Origin: Escherichia coli
Lineage (GTDB): Bacteria > Pseudomonadota > Gammaproteobacteria > Enterobacterales > Enterobacteriaceae
Strand: one strand, 5' to 3'
DNA length: 64,000 nucleotides
Assembly (NCBI RefSeq): GCF_003790525.1
Contig: NZ_CP033635.1
The notes under the pieces are model-generated. The model was not told the DNA's origin and made no database searches. It saw nothing but the letters and a program-made list of their open reading frames with translations. Positions 1-60,615 of the stretch are shown here, one piece after another; the first letter of the stretch is position 1, and every line of letters starts with the position of its first letter. The position numbers and the translations under genes are program-made.

Positions 1-1113
1 CCCCGGAAGCACGCTGGCACTGTAGACGTAGACAAACACACGCTGCGGATTGGGAATGATGTAGTTCAGGCATGAGCCAATTAACAGGATAGCAATAGAT
101 ACTGCCACACCCGCAACCGGTACGCCGTGACGGGAAACTTTCGCCATTGCCGCCGGTAACTGACGGTTTTTCGCCAGTGCGTAGAGCATACGTCCGCAAC
201 TGTACATGCCGCTGTTACAGCCAGAGAGCGCAGCCGTCAGCACCACAAAGTTGATAATACCCGCCGCTGCGGTAATGCCGATTTTGGCGAAAGTCAGTAC
301 GAACGGGCTGCCGTTGCTGCCTATTTCATTCCACGGGAAGATGGTGACGATAACGAAAATCGCGCCTACGTAGAAAATCAGGATTCGCCACAGCACCTTG
401 CCTACGGCACTGCGCAGCGTCACCTGCGGATTCTTCGCTTCACCGGCAGTAATGCCAATCAGCTCCACGCCCTGGTAGGACGCCACCACAATACACAGCG
501 CGGTCAGGAACCCTTTCCAGCCCCCCGCAAAGAAACCGCCATGCTCTGTGAGATTGCTAAAACCAATCGACTGCCCGCCATTGCCAAAGCCAAAGAAAAT
601 CACGCCCAGGCCAATGACAATCATCACGATAATCGTGGTGACTTTGATCATCGCAAACCAGAACTCGATTTCGCCGTACAACCGCACCGCCGCCAGATTC
701 GCCAATGCTACCAGCGCCACCGCGATCAATGCCGGTATCCATTGCGCCATCTCCGGGAACCAGAACTGGACATAAACGCCAATGGCGGTGATTTCTGAGA
801 TCCCCACCGCCATCCACATAAACCAGTAAGACCAGGCGGTGAGATAGCCAAAAAACGGGCTCATATAACGATGCGCATAAACGGCGAACGAACCGGTAAC
901 AGGTTCGAGGAACAACATTTCGCCCATTGAACGCATGATGAAAAAGACGAATAGCCCGGCGATGATATAGGCCAACAATACGGATGGCCCGGCCCATTTC
1001 AGGGTACTGGCGGCCCCCATAAACAGGCCGACGCCAATGGTGCCCCCCAGGGCGATGAGTTCGATATGTCGAGCCTCCAGCCCACGCTGTAGCTCTGGTT
1101 TGTTATCTGCCAT
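1..1113 (-). CDS. yifK: Putative amino-acid permease YifK (APC family), 5' portion; 3' end lies beyond window start
   Basis: Minus-strand frame starting at ATG ~1111-1113 translates [24 protein letters not shown], the recalled YifK N-terminus; frame runs off the window edge so it is absent from the ORF track; synteny next to wecG. Confidence 0.85.
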
Positions 1114-48666: not shown

Positions 48667-50535
48667 TTAGATTTCGACCTGAGTACCCAGTTCGATAACC
48701 CTGTTTGGCGGGATTTCAAATTGATCCGGCGCACGCAGCGCATTACGTTGCAGCAGCAAGTACAGCTTGCCGCGCAGACGCAAATACCACGGGCGTTTGC
48801 CGAGGATCAACGACTCATGCGACATAAAGAAGGAGGTTTCCATCATCCGGCAACTTAATCCTTCCAGACCGCAGCGGTGGAAAACTTCTTCCACGTTTGG
48901 CGTTTCTCGCCAACCATAACTTGCCACCACGCGCCAGAAAGTGGGCGACAGTTGTTCAATCTGTACCCGACGGACGTTATGGACATATGGCGCGTCTTCG
49001 GTGCGCAGAGTTAACAGAATCACCCGCTCATGCAATACCTTGTTATGTTTCAGGTTATGCATCAGCGCAAAGGGAATGACGTTGATTGCACGCGACATAT
49101 ACACCGCGGTCCCAGGCACGCGAACGGGCGGTGATTTCTCCAGCGAAGCAATCATTGCTTCCAGAGAGTTACCATGTTCATGCATCCGCCGCAGCAAGCG
49201 GAAACGCTCGCTCTTCCAGGTGGTCATCACGATAAACATCACCGTACCGAGGCTTAATGGCAACCAGCCGCCGGAGAGCAGTTTATCGAGGTTAGCGGTG
49301 AACAAGGGAATATCGACACAAAGGAAAGCAATCAGGATCAGCGCAACAAAATACTTATTCCAGTGCCAGTTCTGACGTGCCACGGTAGTCGAGAGAATAG
49401 ACGTCAGCACCATGGTTCCGGTCACCGCAATCCCGTACGCCGCCGCCAGGTTGCTGGAGTGCTCAAAGCTGACAATCACAATCACGACCGCGACATAGAG
49501 CATCCAGTTCACAAAGGGAATATAGATTTGCCCTGACTCCATTTCGGAGGTGTGAATAATGCGCATCGGCGACAAATATCCCAGACGTACCGCCTGACGC
49601 GTCAATGAGAAGACGCCAGAGATAACCGCCTGCGAGGCAATTACCGTCGCCAGTGCGGCGATGATCAGCAGCGGGATCAGCGCCCAGTCCGGTGCCAACA
49701 GGAAGAACGGGTTCTTAATCGCTTCCGGATTCTTTAACAACAGCGCTCCCTGGCCGAAGTAATTAAGGGTTAAGGAAGGCAATACGACGGTGAACCACGC
49801 CAGACGAATAGGGAACTTACCAAAGTGCCCCATATCAGCATACAGCGCCTCGACCCCCGTAATCGACAGCACCACTGCCCCTAATGCAATAAAAGAAACC
49901 GTTTTGTATTCAAGGAAGAAATGCACCGCCCACATCGGATTCAGTGCATGCAGCACTTCCGGGTTAGCAATAATGCTACGTAACCCCAGCCCTGCCAGAA
50001 TCAAAAACCAGGTCAGCATGATCGGTGCAAACAGCTTACCGACCATAGCCGTGCCATGTTTTTGAATCATAAATAATAAAGTGAGAACGATAATTGAGAG
50101 GGGAACTATCCAGGTATCCAGCTGCGGGGCGACGATTTCCAGACCTTCAATGGCTGACATCACCGAAATAGCGGGTGTTATGACGACTTCACCATAGAAA
50201 AAGCTGCCGCCGATTAGCCCCATAATCACCAGCATTGATGTGGTTCGCGCCGACGTATTACGCCCGGCAAGCGACATCAACGTCAGGATCCCCCCTTCAC
50301 CGGCGTTATCTGCCCGCATCACGAAGGTGAGATATTTAATGGAAACCACAAAGATTAGCAGCCAGAAGATCAGCGATAAAAAGCCAAACACGGCATCGCG
50401 TTCAACGCCAAAACCAAACTGGCCGGACAAACATTCACGAAGTGTATATAACGGGCTGGTACCAATATCGCCGTAGACAACTCCAATCGCCGCGAGGGTA
50501 ATCGCGGGCAATGATTGCTTATTATCAGTGCTCAT
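48667..50535 (-). CDS. kup: Low-affinity K+ uptake transporter Kup (TrkD)
   Basis: 622 aa [33 protein letters not shown]. Confidence 0.95.
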
Positions 50536-50757
50536 AGACTAGTCTTTCGTTGAAATATGAAATGTGTGCTTAGTCCCTTGGCCCACAAAAAAGCGCACAG
50601 TATGCACGATTAACGGCAAAATCGTACTCCTAAATGCGGCCACATTAACCTGGCTCAAAGAAAAATACCCCCCCTTTGAGACTATTTTAGCCACCAGCAA
50701 GAAACGTCTATACTCGCAATTTACGCAGAACTTTTGACGAAAGGACGCCACTTCATT

Positions 50758-52254
50758 ATGGCTCACCCTCATTTATTAGCGGAAAGAATTTCCCGCCTGA
50801 GCAGTTCGTTGGAAAAGGGGCTTTATGAACGTAGCCACGCCATCCGCTTGTGTTTATTAGCGGCATTAAGTGGTGAAAGTGTGTTCCTCCTTGGCCCGCC
50901 AGGTATTGCCAAAAGTTTGATCGCCCGGCGCTTAAAATTCGCCTTTCAGAATGCCCGCGCGTTTGAATATCTGATGACTCGCTTCTCCACGCCGGAAGAG
51001 GTTTTTGGTCCCCTTTCTATTCAGGCGCTAAAAGATGAAGGGCGCTATGAACGTTTAACCAGCGGTTACCTGCCGGAAGCAGAAATCGTCTTTCTGGATG
51101 AGATCTGGAAAGCGGGTCCGGCAATTCTTAATACCCTGCTCACCGCCATTAACGAGCGCCAGTTCCGCAACGGTGCACACATAGAAAAAATCCCGATGCG
51201 CCTGCTGGTGGCGGCCTCCAACGAGCTGCCGGAAGCAGACAGCAGTCTGGAAGCGTTATATGACCGCATGCTGATTCGTCTGTGGTTAGATAAAGTGCAG
51301 GATAAAGCGAATTTCCGCTCCATGCTGACCAGTCAACAGGATGAAAACGACAATCCGGTTCCTACCTCCTTGCAGGTCACAGATGAAGAATATGAACGCT
51401 GGCAGAAAGAGATTGGTGAAATTACGCTGCCCGATCATGTATTTGAGCTGATTTTTATGCTGCGCCAGCAACTGGATAAATTACCGGATGCGCCTTATGT
51501 CTCGGATCGTCGCTGGAAAAAAGCGATTCGATTATTGCAGGCCAGCGCCTTTTTTAGCGGTCGCAGTGCTGTTGCCCCGGTTGATCTCATTTTGCTGAAA
51601 GATTGCCTGTGGTATGACGCGCAAAGCCTGAATTTGATACAACAACAAATCGATGTATTGATGACCGGTCATGCCTGGCAACAGCAAGGGATGTTGACCC
51701 GCCTGGGCGCGATTGTGCAACGTCACCTGCAACTACAGCAGCAACAAAGCGATAAAACAGCCTTAACGGTAATTCGTCTGGGCGGCATTTTCAGCCGTCG
51801 TCAGCAGTATCAACTCCCTGTTAACGTTACTGCTTCCACTCTGACTCTGCTGCTGCAAAAACCGTTAAAACTGCATGATATGGAAGTGGTTCATATCACC
51901 TTTGAGCGTAGCGCGCTGGAACAGTGGCTGAGCAAAGGTGGTGAAATTCGCGGCAAACTAAACGGTATCGGCTTTGCCCAGAAACTGAATCTGGAAGTTG
52001 ATAGCACCCAACATCTTGTTGTACGCGATGTAAGTTTACAAGGCAGTACGCTGGCACTTCCCGGTTCATCGGCTGAAGGTCTGCCAGGTGAAATAAAACA
52101 ACAACTGGAAGAGCTTGAAAGCGACTGGCGCAAGCAACACGCTTTATTCAGCGAACAGCAAAAATGTCTGTTTATCCCTGGCGACTGGTTAGGTCGCATT
52201 GAAGCCAGCCTACAGGATGTCGGTGCACAGATTCGCCAGGCGCAACAATGCTAA
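50758..52254 (+). CDS. ravA: MoxR-family AAA+ ATPase RavA
   Basis: Track ORF trimmed to [30 protein letters not shown] (498 aa); Walker A GPPGIAKS. Confidence 0.95.
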
Positions 52255-53699
52255 CGCTGGATACGCTTAATGTGATGCTGGCCGTCAGCGAAGAGGGATT
52301 GATCGAAGAGATGATCATCGCGCTGCTGGCCTCACCGCAGCTGGCGGTCTTCTTTGAAAAATTCCCACGACTGAAGGCGGCTATCACTGATGATGTTCCC
52401 CGCTGGCGTGAGGCGCTGCGCAGTCGGCTGAAAGATGCCCGAGTCCCGCCGGAACTCACCGAAGAGGTGATGTGCTATCAGCAAAGCCAGCTCCTCTCCA
52501 CGCCGCAGTTTATTGTGCAGCTACCACAGATCCTGGACTTACTGCATCGTCTGAATTCCCCATGGGCAGAACAAGCCCGACAGTTGGTTGATGCTAACAG
52601 CACGATCACTTCAGCGTTACACACGCTTTTTCTCCAGCGTTGGCGTTTAAGTCTGATCGTGCAAGCAACGACGTTAAATCAACAGCTATTAGAAGAAGAA
52701 CGCGAACAACTGTTGAGTGAAGTTCAGGAACGCATGACGCAGAGCGGACAACTTGAACCGATTCTCGCAGATAACAATACCGCAGCTGGTCGTCTGTGGG
52801 ATATGAGCGCCGGTCAGCTTAAACGTGGCGACTATCAGTTGATTGTGAAATACGGTGAATTTCTGAACGAACAGCCGGAACTGAAACGCCTGGCAGAACA
52901 GTTGGGGCGTTCCCGGGAAGCCAAATCAATACCGCGCAACGATGCGCAGATGGAAACCTTCCGCACCCTGGTGCGCGAACCGGCGACGGTTCCTGAGCAG
53001 GTTGATGGTCTGCAACAAAGCGATGATATTTTACGTCTCCTGCCGCCAGAACTGGCGACACTAGGGATAACAGAACTGGAGTATGAGTTTTACCGTCGGC
53101 TGGTGGAAAAACAGTTGCTCACCTATCGCCTGCACGGTGAGTCGTGGCGTGAAAAAGTGATCGAACGCCCGGTGGTGCATAAAGATTACGACGAACAGCC
53201 GCGCGGACCGTTTATTGTCTGTGTGGATACTTCCGGCTCAATGGGCGGCTTTAATGAACAGTGTGCGAAAGCGTTCTGCCTGGCCTTGATGCGCATTGCT
53301 CTCGCTGAAAACCGGCGCTGCTATATTATGCTATTTTCCACCGAGATCGTCCGTTATGAGCTTTCAGGCCCACAAGGCATCGAACAGGCAATCCGTTTTT
53401 TAAGCCAGCGTTTTCGTGGTGGTACTGATCTTGCCAGTTGTTTTCGCGCCATTATGGAACGATTGCAAAGCCGGGAATGGTTTGACGCCGATGCGGTGGT
53501 GATTTCTGATTTTATCGCCCAGCGGTTGCCTGACGACGTGACGAGTAAAGTGAAAGAGTTGCAGCGGGTACATCAGCATCGCTTTCATGCCGTGGCGATG
53601 TCGGCACATGGCAAACCCGGCATCATGCGCATTTTCGATCATATCTGGCGCTTTGATACCGGGATGCGAAGCCGCCTGCTCAGACGCTGGCGACGATAA
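52248..53699 (+). CDS. viaA: von Willebrand factor A-domain protein ViaA
   Basis: 483 aa ORF overlapping the ravA 3' end by 7 nt; C-terminal VWA domain (DTSGSM). Confidence 0.93.
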
Positions 53700-53703
53700 A
53701 CGA

Positions 53704-54696
53704 TTACAGCAGAGAAGGGACGCTCTCACGAACTGCCGCTGACCATACTCCACACTGAACCTGGCCGATATGCGGCAGTTGCAGCAGCAGCATGGTCAAA
53801 CGAGACTGGCCGATACCACCGCCGATGGTCTGCGGCATTTCACCGCGCAGCAGCGCCTGATGCCACTCCAGTTGCAGGCGATCTTCGTCACCGGTCAGCG
53901 CCAGCTGATGCTTCAGCGTGTCGGCATCAACGCGGATCCCCATGGAAGAAAGCTCAAACGCATCTTCCAGTACCGGGTTCCACACCAGAATATCGCCGTT
54001 CAGCCCCGCATAGCCCAGCTCTGACGGGGTGCTCCAGTCATCATAATCCGGTGCGCGCACGTCGTGACGATGGCCATCACTCAACTTGCCGCCAATCCCG
54101 ACGAGAAATACCGCGCCAAGATCTTTCGCAATCGCCCGCTCACGCCCTTTGGCATCAAGATTCGGATAACGAGACAGTAACTCCTGGCTGTGTACGAAGT
54201 GGATCTGATCCGGCAGGAACGGTGCCAGGCCAAACTCTTCGCTAACCGCAGCTTCGGTTGCTTTAATTCCCGCCCAGATCGCCTCTACCGTGCTTTTCAG
54301 AGTCGAGAATTGACGCTCGCCGTCGGCCATTACGCGTTCCCAGTCCCACTGGTCAACATAGACCGAGTGCAACGGAGAAAGACGGTCTTCATCGGGGCGA
54401 AGGGCTTTCATGTGCGTGTAAAGCCCTTCGCCCGCACTGAAGTCGTGTTGCCCTAATGTCTGACGTTTCCACTTCGCCAGTGAATGAACCACTTCGAACT
54501 GGGCATCAGGCAGAGCTTTCACTTTTACCTGCACCGCTTTTTCACAGCCCGACAAGTTATCCTGCGTGCCATCCCCCACACGGCTAAGAATCGGCGCCTG
54601 GACTTCAATCAGCCCTAAGCGTTCTTCCAGTTGACGGGAAAAGTGAGATTTCACGAAGCTAATTTGACGTTGTTTGGCAATGTAAGCGGTTTTCAT
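53704..54696 (-). CDS. asnA: Aspartate-ammonia ligase (asparagine synthetase A)
   Basis: 330 aa [41 protein letters not shown]. Confidence 0.96.
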
Positions 54697-54847
54697 TTTT
54701 TATACTCCTGCGTCCTGTTGATTAAGATTAAGCAACAAAAATTGGCCCTCATGCAATATTCATTCAATAAAAAGCCATAGTGACTTTTGATTCATTAAAA
54801 AATAAGGCTAAAATAGAGTGAATCATTAATTCTCATAAGAAAAACCT

Positions 54848-55306
54848 ATGGAAAATTATCTGATCGACAATCTGGACCGCGGCATCCTGGAAGCATTAAT
54901 GGAAAATGCACGCACTGCTTACGCCGAACTGGCGAAACAATTTGGTGTAAGCCCGGGGACGATTCACGTTCGTGTAGAGAAAATGAAGCAGGCGGGAATC
55001 ATTACAGGGGCGCGTATTGACGTCAGCCCGAAACAGCTCGGTTATGACGTAGGCTGCTTTATCGGCATTATATTGAAGAGTGCCAAAGACTATCCTTCCG
55101 CGCTGGCAAAGCTGGAAAGCCTTGATGAAGTCACCGAGGCCTACTACACCACCGGCCACTACAGCATCTTTATCAAAGTGATGTGCCGTTCGATCGACGC
55201 CCTCCAGCATGTACTTATCAACAAGATCCAAACAATTGATGAAATTCAGTCCACCGAGACACTGATCGTCCTGCAAAACCCGATCATGCGTACCATCAAG
55301 CCATGA
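54848..55306 (+). CDS. asnC: Lrp/AsnC-family transcriptional regulator AsnC
   Basis: 152 aa ORF MENYLIDNLDRGILEALMENARTAYAELAKQFGVS; divergent from asnA. Confidence 0.96.
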   Translation: MENYLIDNLDRGILEALMENARTAYAELAKQFGVSPGTIHVRVEKMKQAGIITGARIDVSPKQLGYDVGCFIGIILKSAKDYPSALAKLESLDEVTEAYYTTGHYSIFIKVMCRSIDALQHVLINKIQTIDEIQSTETLIVLQNPIMRTIKP

Positions 55307-55395
55307 TCGGCTTTTTTAATCCCATACTTTTCCACAGGTAGATCCCAGCGCGTTCACAGCGTACAATACGCCACTCTTAATAAAGGTGGCGGTTT

Positions 55396-55839
55396 ATGGC
55401 AGATATCACTCTTATCAGCGGCAGCACCCTCGGCGGTGCCGAATATGTAGCAGAACACCTGGCTGAAAAGCTGGAAGAGGCGGGTTTTACCACCGAAACG
55501 CTGCACGGTCCGCTGTTGGAAGAATTATCTGCCTCGGGGATCTGGCTGGTTATCAGTTCCACCCACGGTGCCGGAGATATTCCGGACAACCTTTCTCCTT
55601 TCTATGAAGCATTACAGGAACAAAAGCCCGATCTTTCTGCGGTACGCTTTGGCGCAATCGGTATTGGCAGTCGTGAATACGACACCTTTTGTGGGGCTAT
55701 CGATAAACTCGAGGCAGAACTCAAAAATTCCGGTGCAAAACAGACAGGCGAAACACTGAAGATCAACATCCTTGATCACGACATTCCTGAAGATCCGGCA
55801 GAAGAATGGCTGGGATCGTGGATTAATTTACTCAAATAA
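55396..55839 (+). CDS. mioC: Flavodoxin-like FMN-binding protein MioC
   Basis: 147 aa ORF MADITLISGSTLGGAEYVAEHLAEKLEEAGF; immediately adjacent to oriC. Confidence 0.96.
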   Translation: MADITLISGSTLGGAEYVAEHLAEKLEEAGFTTETLHGPLLEELSASGIWLVISSTHGAGDIPDNLSPFYEALQEQKPDLSAVRFGAIGIGSREYDTFCGAIDKLEAELKNSGAKQTGETLKINILDHDIPEDPAEEWLGSWINLLK

Positions 55840-55845
55840 GTATAC

Positions 55846-56127
55846 AGATCGTGCGATCCACTGTGGATAACTCTGTCAGGAAGCTTGGATCAACCGGTAG
55901 TTATCCAAAGAACAACGGTTGTTCAGTTTTTGAGTTGTGTATAACCCCTCATTCTGATCCCAGCTTATACGGTCCAGGATCACCGATCATTCACAGTTAA
56001 TGATCCTTTCCAGGTTGTTGATCTTAAAAGCCGGATCCTTGTTATCCACAGGGCAGTGCGATCCTAATAAGAGATCACAATAGAACAGATCTCTAAATAA
56101 ATAGATCTTCTTTTTAATACCCAGGAT
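55846..56127. other. oriC: Chromosomal replication origin oriC
   Basis: DnaA boxes TGTGGATAA (55862-55870), TTATCCAAA (55901-55909), TGTGTATAA (55937-55945), TTATCCACA (56042-56050); three GATC-initiated 13-mers of the unwinding element at about 56064-56107 followed by an AT-rich tract; 14 GATC sites in about 280 bp; flanked by mioC and mnmG. Confidence 0.95.
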
Positions 56128-56217
56128 CCCAGGTCTTTCTCAAGCCGACAAAGTTGAGTAGAATCCACGGCCCGGGCTTCAATCCATTTTCATACCGCGT
56201 TATGCGAGGCAATCACC

Positions 56218-58107
56218 ATGTTTTATCCGGATCCTTTTGACGTCATCATCATTGGCGGGGGTCATGCAGGCACCGAGGCCGCGATGGCCGCGGCGCGTAT
56301 GGGTCAACAGACTCTGCTTTTGACACACAATATCGACACTCTGGGGCAGATGAGCTGCAACCCGGCGATCGGCGGTATTGGGAAGGGACATCTGGTAAAA
56401 GAAGTGGATGCACTCGGCGGTCTGATGGCGAAAGCGATCGATCTGGCGGGTATCCAGTTTAGGATACTAAACGCAAGTAAGGGACCGGCAGTTCGCGCTA
56501 CCCGAGCTCAGGCGGATCGTGTGCTCTACCGGCAGGCGGTACGTACGGCGCTGGAGAACCAACCGAACCTGATGATCTTCCAGCAGGCAGTTGAAGATCT
56601 TATTGTCGAAAACGATCGCGTGGTCGGAGCCGTTACCCAAATGGGACTGAAGTTCCGTGCCAAAGCTGTCGTGCTCACCGTTGGGACGTTCCTCGACGGT
56701 AAAATTCATATCGGTCTGGATAACTACAGCGGTGGCCGTGCTGGTGATCCGCCGTCCATTCCGCTTTCTCGCCGTTTGCGTGAACTGCCGCTGCGCGTTG
56801 GTCGTCTGAAAACCGGGACACCACCGCGTATTGATGCTCGAACCATCGACTTTAGCGTACTGGCGCAACAGCATGGCGATAACCCAATGCCGGTATTCTC
56901 GTTTATGGGCAATGCGTCCCAGCATCCCCAGCAGGTGCCGTGTTATATCACTCATACCAACGAGAAAACCCATGATGTGATCCGCAGTAACCTCGATCGT
57001 AGCCCAATGTACGCAGGGGTGATCGAAGGTGTCGGCCCACGCTACTGCCCGTCGATCGAAGACAAAGTCATGCGCTTCGCCGACAGAAATCAGCATCAGA
57101 TCTTCCTTGAACCGGAAGGGCTGACCTCTAACGAAATTTATCCGAACGGTATCTCCACCAGCCTGCCGTTCGATGTGCAGATGCAAATCGTCCGCTCCAT
57201 GCAGGGGATGGAAAACGCGAAGATCGTGCGTCCGGGTTATGCCATTGAGTATGACTTCTTCGATCCACGCGACCTGAAACCGACGCTGGAGAGCAAGTTT
57301 ATCCAGGGGCTGTTCTTTGCTGGTCAGATTAACGGCACTACCGGTTACGAAGAAGCCGCTGCGCAAGGTTTGCTGGCTGGTCTTAACGCTGCCCGTCTGT
57401 CTGCAGACAAAGAAGGTTGGGCTCCGGCGCGTTCTCAGGCGTATCTCGGCGTACTGGTTGATGACCTGTGCACTTTAGGAACCAAAGAACCGTATCGTAT
57501 GTTTACCTCGCGCGCAGAATATCGTCTGATGCTGCGCGAAGATAATGCGGATCTGCGTTTGACTGAAATCGGTCGTGAACTGGGCCTGGTGGATGACGAA
57601 CGTTGGGCGCGCTTTAACGAGAAACTTGAGAATATCGAGCGTGAGCGTCAGCGTCTGAAATCGACCTGGGTAACCCCGTCGGCGGAAGCTGCAGCCGAAG
57701 TGAATGCTCACCTGACTGCGCCACTTTCCCGTGAAGCCAGTGGTGAAGATCTGCTGCGTCGTCCGGAAATGACTTATGAAAAATTAACCACGCTGACGCC
57801 GTTTGCCCCTGCGTTGACAGACGAACAGGCGGCGGAACAGGTTGAGATTCAGGTTAAATACGAAGGTTATATCGCGCGCCAGCAAGATGAGATCGAAAAG
57901 CAGCTGCGTAACGAGAACACCCTGCTACCAGCGACGCTGGATTACCGCCAGGTATCCGGTCTTTCTAACGAAGTGATCGCCAAACTTAACGATCACAAAC
58001 CGGCCTCTATCGGTCAGGCTTCGCGTATTTCTGGCGTCACGCCTGCGGCCATCTCCATTCTGCTGGTGTGGCTGAAAAAACAGGGTATGCTGCGTCGTAG
58101 CGCATAA
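56218..58107 (+). CDS. mnmG: tRNA uridine 5-carboxymethylaminomethyl modification enzyme MnmG (GidA)
   Basis: 629 aa [32 protein letters not shown] (FAD-binding GxGxxG). Confidence 0.96.
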
Positions 58108-58170
58108 CGCATTAAAAATGCCTGGTAAGCACCCGCTTACCAGGCAACGCATCAAGAACAGGTAATCACC

Positions 58171-58794
58171 GTGCTCAACAAACTCTCCTTACTGCTGAAA
58201 GACGCAGGTATTTCGCTTACCGATCACCAGAAAAACCAGCTTATTGCCTACGTGAATATGCTGCATAAATGGAATAAAGCGTACAACCTGACTTCGGTTC
58301 GCGATCCTAATGAGATGCTGGTACGCCATATTCTCGATAGCATTGTGGTAGCTCCGTATCTGCAAGGTGAACGGTTTATCGATGTCGGCACCGGACCAGG
58401 ACTGCCTGGCATTCCACTCTCTATCGTGCGTCCTGAAGCCCACTTCACGTTGTTGGATAGCCTTGGTAAACGCGTGCGTTTCCTTCGTCAGGTGCAACAT
58501 GAGCTTAAACTGGAGAATATTGAGCCAGTACAGAGCAGGGTAGAAGAGTTTCCTTCTGAGCCGCCATTTGATGGCGTAATTAGCCGCGCTTTTGCCTCTC
58601 TGAACGATATGGTGAGCTGGTGCCACCATCTTCCTGGTGAGCAAGGTCGTTTCTACGCGCTGAAAGGCCAAATGCCGGAAGATGAAATCGCTTTGTTGCC
58701 CGAAGAATATCAGGTCGAATCAGTGGTTAAACTTCACGTTCCGGCCCTGGATGGCGAACGTCATCTGGTGATGATTAAAGCAAATAAAATTTAA
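58171..58794 (+). CDS. rsmG: 16S rRNA m7G527 methyltransferase RsmG (GidB)
   Basis: 207 aa ORF with SAM-binding motif [13 protein letters not shown]. Confidence 0.95.
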
Positions 58795-58881
58795 TTTTTA
58801 TCAAAAAAATCATAAAAAATTGACCGGTTAGACTGTTAACAACAACCCGGTTTTCTACTGATATAACTGGTTACATTTAAC

Positions 58882-58927
58882 GCCACGTTCACTCTTTTGC
58901 ATCAACAAAGTAACGTGGCTTTTTTTG
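58882..58927 (+). terminator. Candidate intrinsic terminator after rsmG (GCCACGTT ... AACGTGGC followed by T7)
   Basis: Inverted repeat with a long loop and T-run read from sequence. Confidence 0.45.
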
Positions 58928-59291
58928 GTAAGCAGAAAATAAGTCATAAGTGAAAATATCAGTCTGCTAAAAATCGGCGCTAAGAATCATCATTGGCTGT
59001 TAAAACATTATTAAAAATGTCAATGGGTGGTTTTTGTTGTGTAAATGTCATTTATTAAAACAGTATCTGTTTTTAGACTGAAATATCATAAACTTGCAAA
59101 GGCATCATTTGCCAAGTAAATAAATATGCTGTGCGCGAACATGCTCAATATGTGATCTGAAGCACGCTTTATCACCAGTGTTTACGCGTTATTTACAGTT
59201 TTTCATGATCGAACAGGGTTTGCAGAAAAGTCGCAATTGTATGCACTGGAAAAATATTTAAACATTTATTCACCTTTTGGCTACTTATTGT

Positions 59292-59319
59292 TTGAAATCA
59301 CGGGGGCGCACCGTATAAT
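59292..59319 (+). promoter_or_regulatory. atp operon promoter (-35 TTGAAA, -10 TATAAT)
   Basis: TTGAAATCACGGGGGCGCACCGTATAAT with 16-bp spacer, about 90 nt upstream of atpI. Confidence 0.8.
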
Positions 59320-59410
59320 TTGACCGCTTTTTGATGCTTGACTCTAAGCCTTAAAGAAAGTTTTATACGACACGCGGCATACCTCGAAGGGAGCAGGAGT
59401 GAAAAACGTG

Positions 59411-60615
<1,205 letters not shown>

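Follow-up and report, generated by a model that had tools for sequence, protein, structure and literature searches.

The origin region and its flanking genes

In the 64-kb stretch of Escherichia coli DNA analyzed here (the window), a gap of 378 bp separates two open reading frames of the same strand, mioC and mnmG (Table 1). E. coli AR_0013 is 100% identical to the window over positions 55840-56217 and has its flanking genes annotated as mioC and mnmG, as they are in K-12, and in K-12 MG1655 a feature "origin_of_replication oriC" is annotated in the same gap, which bears out the placement of oriC between these genes in the initial annotation. Transcription of mioC runs towards and through oriC and that of mnmG away from it. 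To the left of about 56 kb the GC skew is negative and to the right positive, and the cumulative skew reaches its minimum at 54-58 kb. The oriC region was found in 5,424 of 5,426 complete E. coli genomes, in every case on the chromosome.

On the minus strand, 34826-40000 holds an rrnC-type rRNA operon, with tRNA-Trp (34826-34901) and tRNA-Asp (34910-34986) downstream and tRNA-Glu (38343-38418) in the spacer; the GC skew of the window is at its most negative there.

The origin is oriented in the window opposite to the usual drawing of K-12, the "top" strand of K-12 being the minus strand of the window. The classical numbering counts from the first G of the BamHI site GGATCC (position 1) and puts the beginning of the L 13-mer at position 23; the window coordinate is 56130 minus the classical oriC position. 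The limits of minimal oriC we take to be classical positions 23-267.

Table 1. Features of the origin region and its neighborhood, with window coordinates and, where given, classical oriC positions
Feature	Window	Classical	Strand	Sequence, basis or remark
mioC	55396-55839		+	ORF; annotation of the counterpart in AR_0013 and SMS-3-5
mioC-mnmG intergenic region with oriC	55840-56217		-	gap-free K-12 alignment and flanking ORFs
mnmG (gidA)	56218-58107		+	ORF; annotation in AR_0013 and SMS-3-5
Minimal oriC	55863-56107	23-267	-	coordinate mapping
Duplex-unwinding element	56064-56120		-	AT cluster and L, M and R 13-mers
AT cluster	56108-56120			
L 13-mer	56095-56107			
M 13-mer	56079-56091			
R 13-mer	56064-56076			
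DnaA box R1	56042-56050	80-88	+	TTATCCACA; exact match to TTWTNCACA
IHF site	56011-56023		-	GATCAACAACCTG; sequence of PMC4285127, Table 2; same in K-12
DnaA box R5M	55987-55995		+	TCATTCACA; one mismatch to consensus; same in K-12
DnaA box R2	55936-55944	186-194	-	TTATACACA; exact consensus match
Fis site	55910-55924	206-220		GAACAACCGTTGTTC; palindrome GAACAAC-C-GTTGTTC, centre at 55917
Low-affinity DnaA box C3 (candidate)	55907-55915	215-223	-	TTGTTCTTT; putative coordinates
DnaA box R3	55901-55909	221-229	+	TTATCCAAA; one mismatch to consensus
Low-affinity DnaA box I3	55885-55893		-	TTGATCCAA; putative coordinates; same in K-12
Low-affinity DnaA box C1	55874-55882		-	TTCCTGACA; putative coordinates; same in K-12
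DnaA box R4	55862-55870	260-268	-	TTATCCACA; exact consensus match
Polymorphism 271	55859	271		3 bp past R4; not in minimal oriC

Elements of the origin

The minimal origin has been described as the 245 bp from the L 13-mer to R4 (PMC4585315). In the window R1, R2 and R4 are exact TTATNCACA, and the spacing of the DnaA boxes is canonical, with no indel relative to K-12. R3 and R5M have a single mismatch each. All elements described in the initial annotation were recovered at the coordinates given there, including its four consensus-like DnaA 9-mers and the three GATC-initiated 13-mers (L, M and R) and AT-rich tract of the duplex-unwinding element, where the GC content is 0.25 (56060-56119); the sequences GATCTATTTATTT, GATCTGTTCTATT and GATCTCTTATTAG of this element are the same in K-12. 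The claim of 14 GATC sites in about 280 bp against about one expected by chance also held, there being 14 between 55847 and 56128 (282 bp) with about 1.4 expected from the density in the window (317 GATC in the whole 64 kb, or 4.95 per kb). This count is the highest of any 290-bp stretch in the 64 kb, and 11 of the 14 sites are inside minimal oriC.

The IHF site is placed between R1 and R5M, the Fis site between R2 and C3. For the low-affinity boxes I3 and C1 the names were taken from the literature and the positions were derived in this analysis. The exact coordinates of C3 rest on reviews and on our own motif and conservation analysis. Compared with TTWTNCACA the candidate TTGTTCTTT shows four mismatches, and it shares bases with both R3 and the Fis site; four R-box mismatches have been reported for C3 (PMC4585315), as has an overlap with R3 and the Fis site (PMC4585315, PMC8488378).

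The K-12 MG1655 oriC (NC_000913.3 3925744-3925975 and flanks) has the same location, length and spacing, and it shares the 13-mers, the boxes R1-R5M, the low-affinity boxes, the IHF site and all 14 GATC. It differs at position 213, the centre of the Fis site, and at position 271, 3 bp beyond R4.

Two differences from K-12

When the reverse complement of the window was aligned with NC_000913.3 3925634-3926011 (K-12 MG1655), 376 of 378 bases were identical, without gaps and with exactly two mismatches. At position 213 (window 55917) K-12 has A and the window C (t and g, respectively, on the plus strand of the window); at position 271 K-12 has A and the window G (t and c on the plus strand). The initial annotation had quoted two strings, GATCCACTGTGGATAA and AACAACGGTTGTTC, as apparent deviations from the K-12 origin. 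Both are present in the window, and the two differences of the alignment are exactly the suspected ones, so that the K-12 sequence assumed there was right.

Position 271 is directly followed by the GATC at 272-275, which is kept, and no described protein site was found at this position. Minimal oriC thus differs from that of K-12 in one base only, position 213, which falls between R2 and R3 and, with C3 placed at 215-223, would be outside every DnaA box. None of the DnaA boxes, the IHF site and the 13-mers is altered by the two differences.

Allele frequencies within E. coli

Alleles at position 213 were assigned in 5,426 complete E. coli genomes by megablast with 41-mers, in which the required exact 28-base word includes the centre base, and those at position 271 by exact 61-mers. 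In K-12 orientation the window allele C213 was found in 2,237 genomes (41%), the K-12 allele A213 in 1,308 (24%) and G213 in 1,288 (24%), and the 41-mer search revealed T213 in none of the 5,426. About 590 genomes were left without an assigned allele at 213 because a second nearby SNP (e.g. T212) breaks the 28-base word. Sampled genomes, when aligned directly, likewise showed three alleles at this position. At position 271 the exact 61-mer with the K-12 allele A was present in 4,646 genomes and that with the window allele G in at least 539.

The combined haplotype C213 plus G271 occurs exactly in 358 complete genomes, among them SMS-3-5, IAI39 and CE10, which makes of the two differences strain polymorphisms rather than the mistakes about K-12 that the initial annotation had considered as the other possibility. 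It had also named an outcome that would refute it, namely a common E. coli origin allele with all differences outside protein-binding sites. This is largely what was found, since the allele is a common one that leaves the DnaA, IHF and 13-mer elements intact, but position 213 is the centre of the 15-bp Fis site, a base that the Fis consensus does not specify.

Variation of oriC among 59 E. coli genomes was reported to lie mainly in the spacers, and the Fis site of oriC was stated to be completely conserved in these genomes (PMC4585315). In the 15-mer quoted as the Fis site (PMC4285127), the centre base is that of K-12 in only some 24% of the complete genomes. That this base is tri-allelic differs from the statement of complete conservation in PMC4585315, which is a small discrepancy.

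Constraint across species

A scan of species-representative genomes for the R2-R3-R4 box pattern yielded at least 120 loci from Escherichia to Vibrio. (Matches in Dyadobacter and Paenibacillus look like chance.) The other Enterobacterales and Vibrio origins share with the window the spacing R2-27 nt-R3-30 nt-R4 and the motif TTRTWC at 215-220; they differ in their spacer sequences, positions 213 and 271 being among the variable ones. In the 80 Enterobacterales species among the matches listed, position 213 is G in 51, A in 15, C in 13 and T in 1, and position 271 is A in 39, T in 22, C in 15 and G in 4. In the same 80 species among the matches listed, positions 215, 216, 218 and 220 are 96-100% invariant. 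Positions 213 and 271 therefore appear to be free positions adjoining strongly constrained ones, and the near-invariance of TTRTWC (215-220) independently supports the view that C3 is probably a real DnaA box.

Of the outgroups, E. albertii has C213 and C271, and E. whittamii and a divergent species representative labelled 'E. coli' have A213 and A271; from these states G271 looks derived within E. coli.

Two further variants were seen in these comparisons. In E. whittamii, E. albertii and NZ_JAATUR010000025.1 (labelled E. coli) the C1 box TTCCTGACA is replaced at about 252-254 by TTCCTACCA, which indicates that this low-affinity box differs between Escherichia species. In the typical O157:H7 origins (two genomes) G54T destroys the GATC with which the R 13-mer starts. 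The outer positions of the R 13-mer vary in 6 of 59 strains (PMC4585315), and G54T fits such variation; a GATC-destroying change was reported in five strains (PMC4585315), which may or may not be the G54T of O157:H7.

A change between C and G at position 213 within the O157:H7 clone, which would have demonstrated recent recurrent mutation, found no support, since the two typical genomes have G and TR01, which bears C, differs from them in the haplotype of the genes on either side.

The centre base of the Fis site

The Fis site of oriC has been given as GAACAACAGTTGTTC, overlapping DnaA box C3 (PMC4285127, Table 2). The site in the window differs from it at the centre base only and fits the consensus GnnYAnnnnnTRnnC at every specified base, position 213 being one of the unspecified central Ns and at the same time the base exactly midway in the perfect 7+7 bp palindrome GAACAAC-N-GTTGTTC. 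Two closely spaced Fis sites have been described here, one of them overlapping C3 (PMC8488378); the reviews together with our motif and conservation analysis would place the second at about position 202, with an A-tract as its centre.

For binding by Fis the minor groove has to be compressed over the 5 bp at the centre, and sites are selected whose centre is A/T-rich and compressible; G/C pairs in this region lower the affinity, the 2-amino groups of guanine at -2 to +2 reducing the binding of Fis (PMC4784862). The centre reads ACAGT in K-12 and ACCGT in the window, whereby the number of G/C pairs increases from two to three, and we infer that the third pair might slightly weaken the binding of Fis.

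One may then ask whether the allele at 213 is functional, a weaker occupancy by Fis leaving less DnaA-ATP to be required for its displacement and shifting the timing or synchrony of initiation at fast growth relative to K-12. In favor of this, the 15-mer cited for Fis at oriC has the variable base at its very centre, G/C pairs at -2 to +2 make the minor groove wider and the binding of Fis weaker (PMC4784862), the displacement of Fis by DnaA has been proposed as a timing switch at fast growth (PMC8488378, PMC6070618, PMC6727663), and the lack of T among 5,426 genomes in which A, C and G are common could hint at some constraint. However, the Fis consensus does not specify the centre base, G/C pairs are present at -1 and +1 even in the K-12 site, and a site with one G/C pair in the centre retains high-affinity binding (PMC4784862). 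The position varies freely across species and has three alleles at 24-41% in E. coli; moreover, a second Fis site has been reported nearby (PMC8488378, PMC6070618), and the chromosomal origin initiates without the Fis site (Weigel et al. 2001, per PMC4585315). From the unspecified consensus base, the cross-species variation, the three alleles, the second Fis site and the dispensability of the site it can be argued that any effect of position 213 is small, and we consider a functional difference from K-12 at this base unlikely.

A wider form of this idea, in which the centre of the Fis site is a natural tuning knob and C, A and G differ in Fis affinity and hence in the threshold of DnaA-ATP, strikes us as quite improbable. 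If it were true, lineages would differ in the synchrony of initiation at fast growth, and K-12, the basis of all models, would have the minority allele with the most A/T-rich centre.

Ancestry or recurrent mutation

The alleles at position 213 could also have arisen by recurrent mutation rather than have been inherited, if the unpaired centre of the 7+7 bp palindrome were a mutational hot spot. The position is tri-allelic with every allele above 20%, it lies in the loop of a predicted hairpin, and all four combinations of C or G at 213 with A or G at 271 exist although the two sites are only 58 bp apart. The four-gamete test is thus violated, but so it is by other nearby pairs of sites, and sites 76, 98, 384 and 414 likewise show patterns incompatible with a single tree, as ordinary recombination in E. 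coli predicts; with violations this general the test cannot separate recombination from recurrent mutation. The hairpin predicted for the single strand is weak (-3.7 kcal/mol) and no better than that of shuffled sequence. Its energy is the same for the A, C and G alleles, and these do not differ in structure. Inversion of the spacer would also predict a change from A to T, yet T is absent. The hot-spot explanation is not supported, and we regard it as very unlikely.

That the two differences are not biological at all, but mistakes about K-12 in the initial annotation or errors of sequencing or assembly of the window, was raised in that annotation, single-base changes in a lone sequence looking like errors as long as there is no comparison, and is refuted with virtual certainty by the K-12 reference, which has exactly the bases expected there, by the recurrence of the alleles in hundreds of independent complete genomes (C213, G271 and, in the 358 genomes, both) and by the 23 genomes whose surrounding 10 kb are at least 99% identical.

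An SMS-3-5-like lineage

SMS-3-5 and about 20 other genomes match the window over positions 50000-60000 with 100% identity, and only 23 of the 5,426 genomes have an identity of at least 99% over these 10 kb. SMS-3-5 has C213 and G271 as here, and no difference from it was detected over 50000-60000; IAI39 and CE10 also have C213 and G271, the comparison with them covering the 99-bp haplotype query only. The identity to SMS-3-5 over 10 kb indicates that the window belongs to an SMS-3-5-like lineage and contains the normal origin of that lineage.

Two observations concern the DNA next to the origin. At about 54430-55200, in asnC and the 5' end of asnA, some 44 substitutions in about 780 bp are seen in the window but in none of K-12, AR_0013 and three O157:H7-labelled genomes; such a divergent stretch beside a near-identical oriC suggests a segment that may be lineage specific or recombinant. 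In strains 2D, CUVET17-1418, CUVET19-1396, CUVET19-1993 and e1-39 the counterpart of 50000-60000 is identical except that it contains, near oriC, about 1.4 kb of inserted DNA with the annotation IS4-family transposase, the match being in two pieces over 11.4 kb; the insertion is absent from the window.

Working of the origin

The region is almost certainly a functional E. coli oriC of the SMS-3-5 type that works as in K-12, the two differences being ordinary polymorphisms at unconstrained positions, one at the Fis-site centre, which is not contacted, and one in the spacer next to R4, and nothing argues against its identification as oriC. Both alleles are probably neutral in function or nearly so. 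Since the functional elements are all identical to those of K-12, the K-12 model applies, and near-identity to the experimentally defined K-12 origin points to DnaA-dependent initiation at this locus. Sequence identity, motifs, allele frequencies and cross-species variability come from the present analysis, and the mechanism of assembly from the K-12 literature.

According to this mechanism DnaA would stay bound at R1, R2 and R4 (PMC8488378, PMC6070618, PMC6727663, PMC4285127). ATP-DnaA would then fill the low-affinity boxes on the right-hand side from R4 leftwards, displacing Fis between R2 and C3, and upon filling of the left array the 13-mers would open and DnaB would be loaded. After firing, the dense GATC sites would let SeqA sequester the hemimethylated origin.

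Significance

The finding is correct but ordinary, a known element with polymorphisms of a known type and nothing new in kind; that oriC varies naturally in E. coli, mostly in the spacers, was already known (PMC4585315). Its significance is small. It confirms a textbook oriC in the window and shows that the K-12 sequence assumed in the initial annotation was exact. Of minor value is that the 15-mer quoted as the oriC Fis site varies within the species, only about one quarter of the complete genomes having the K-12 form. The three natural alleles at position 213 are also of some minor interest for models of Fis-dependent initiation timing that are based on K-12 only.
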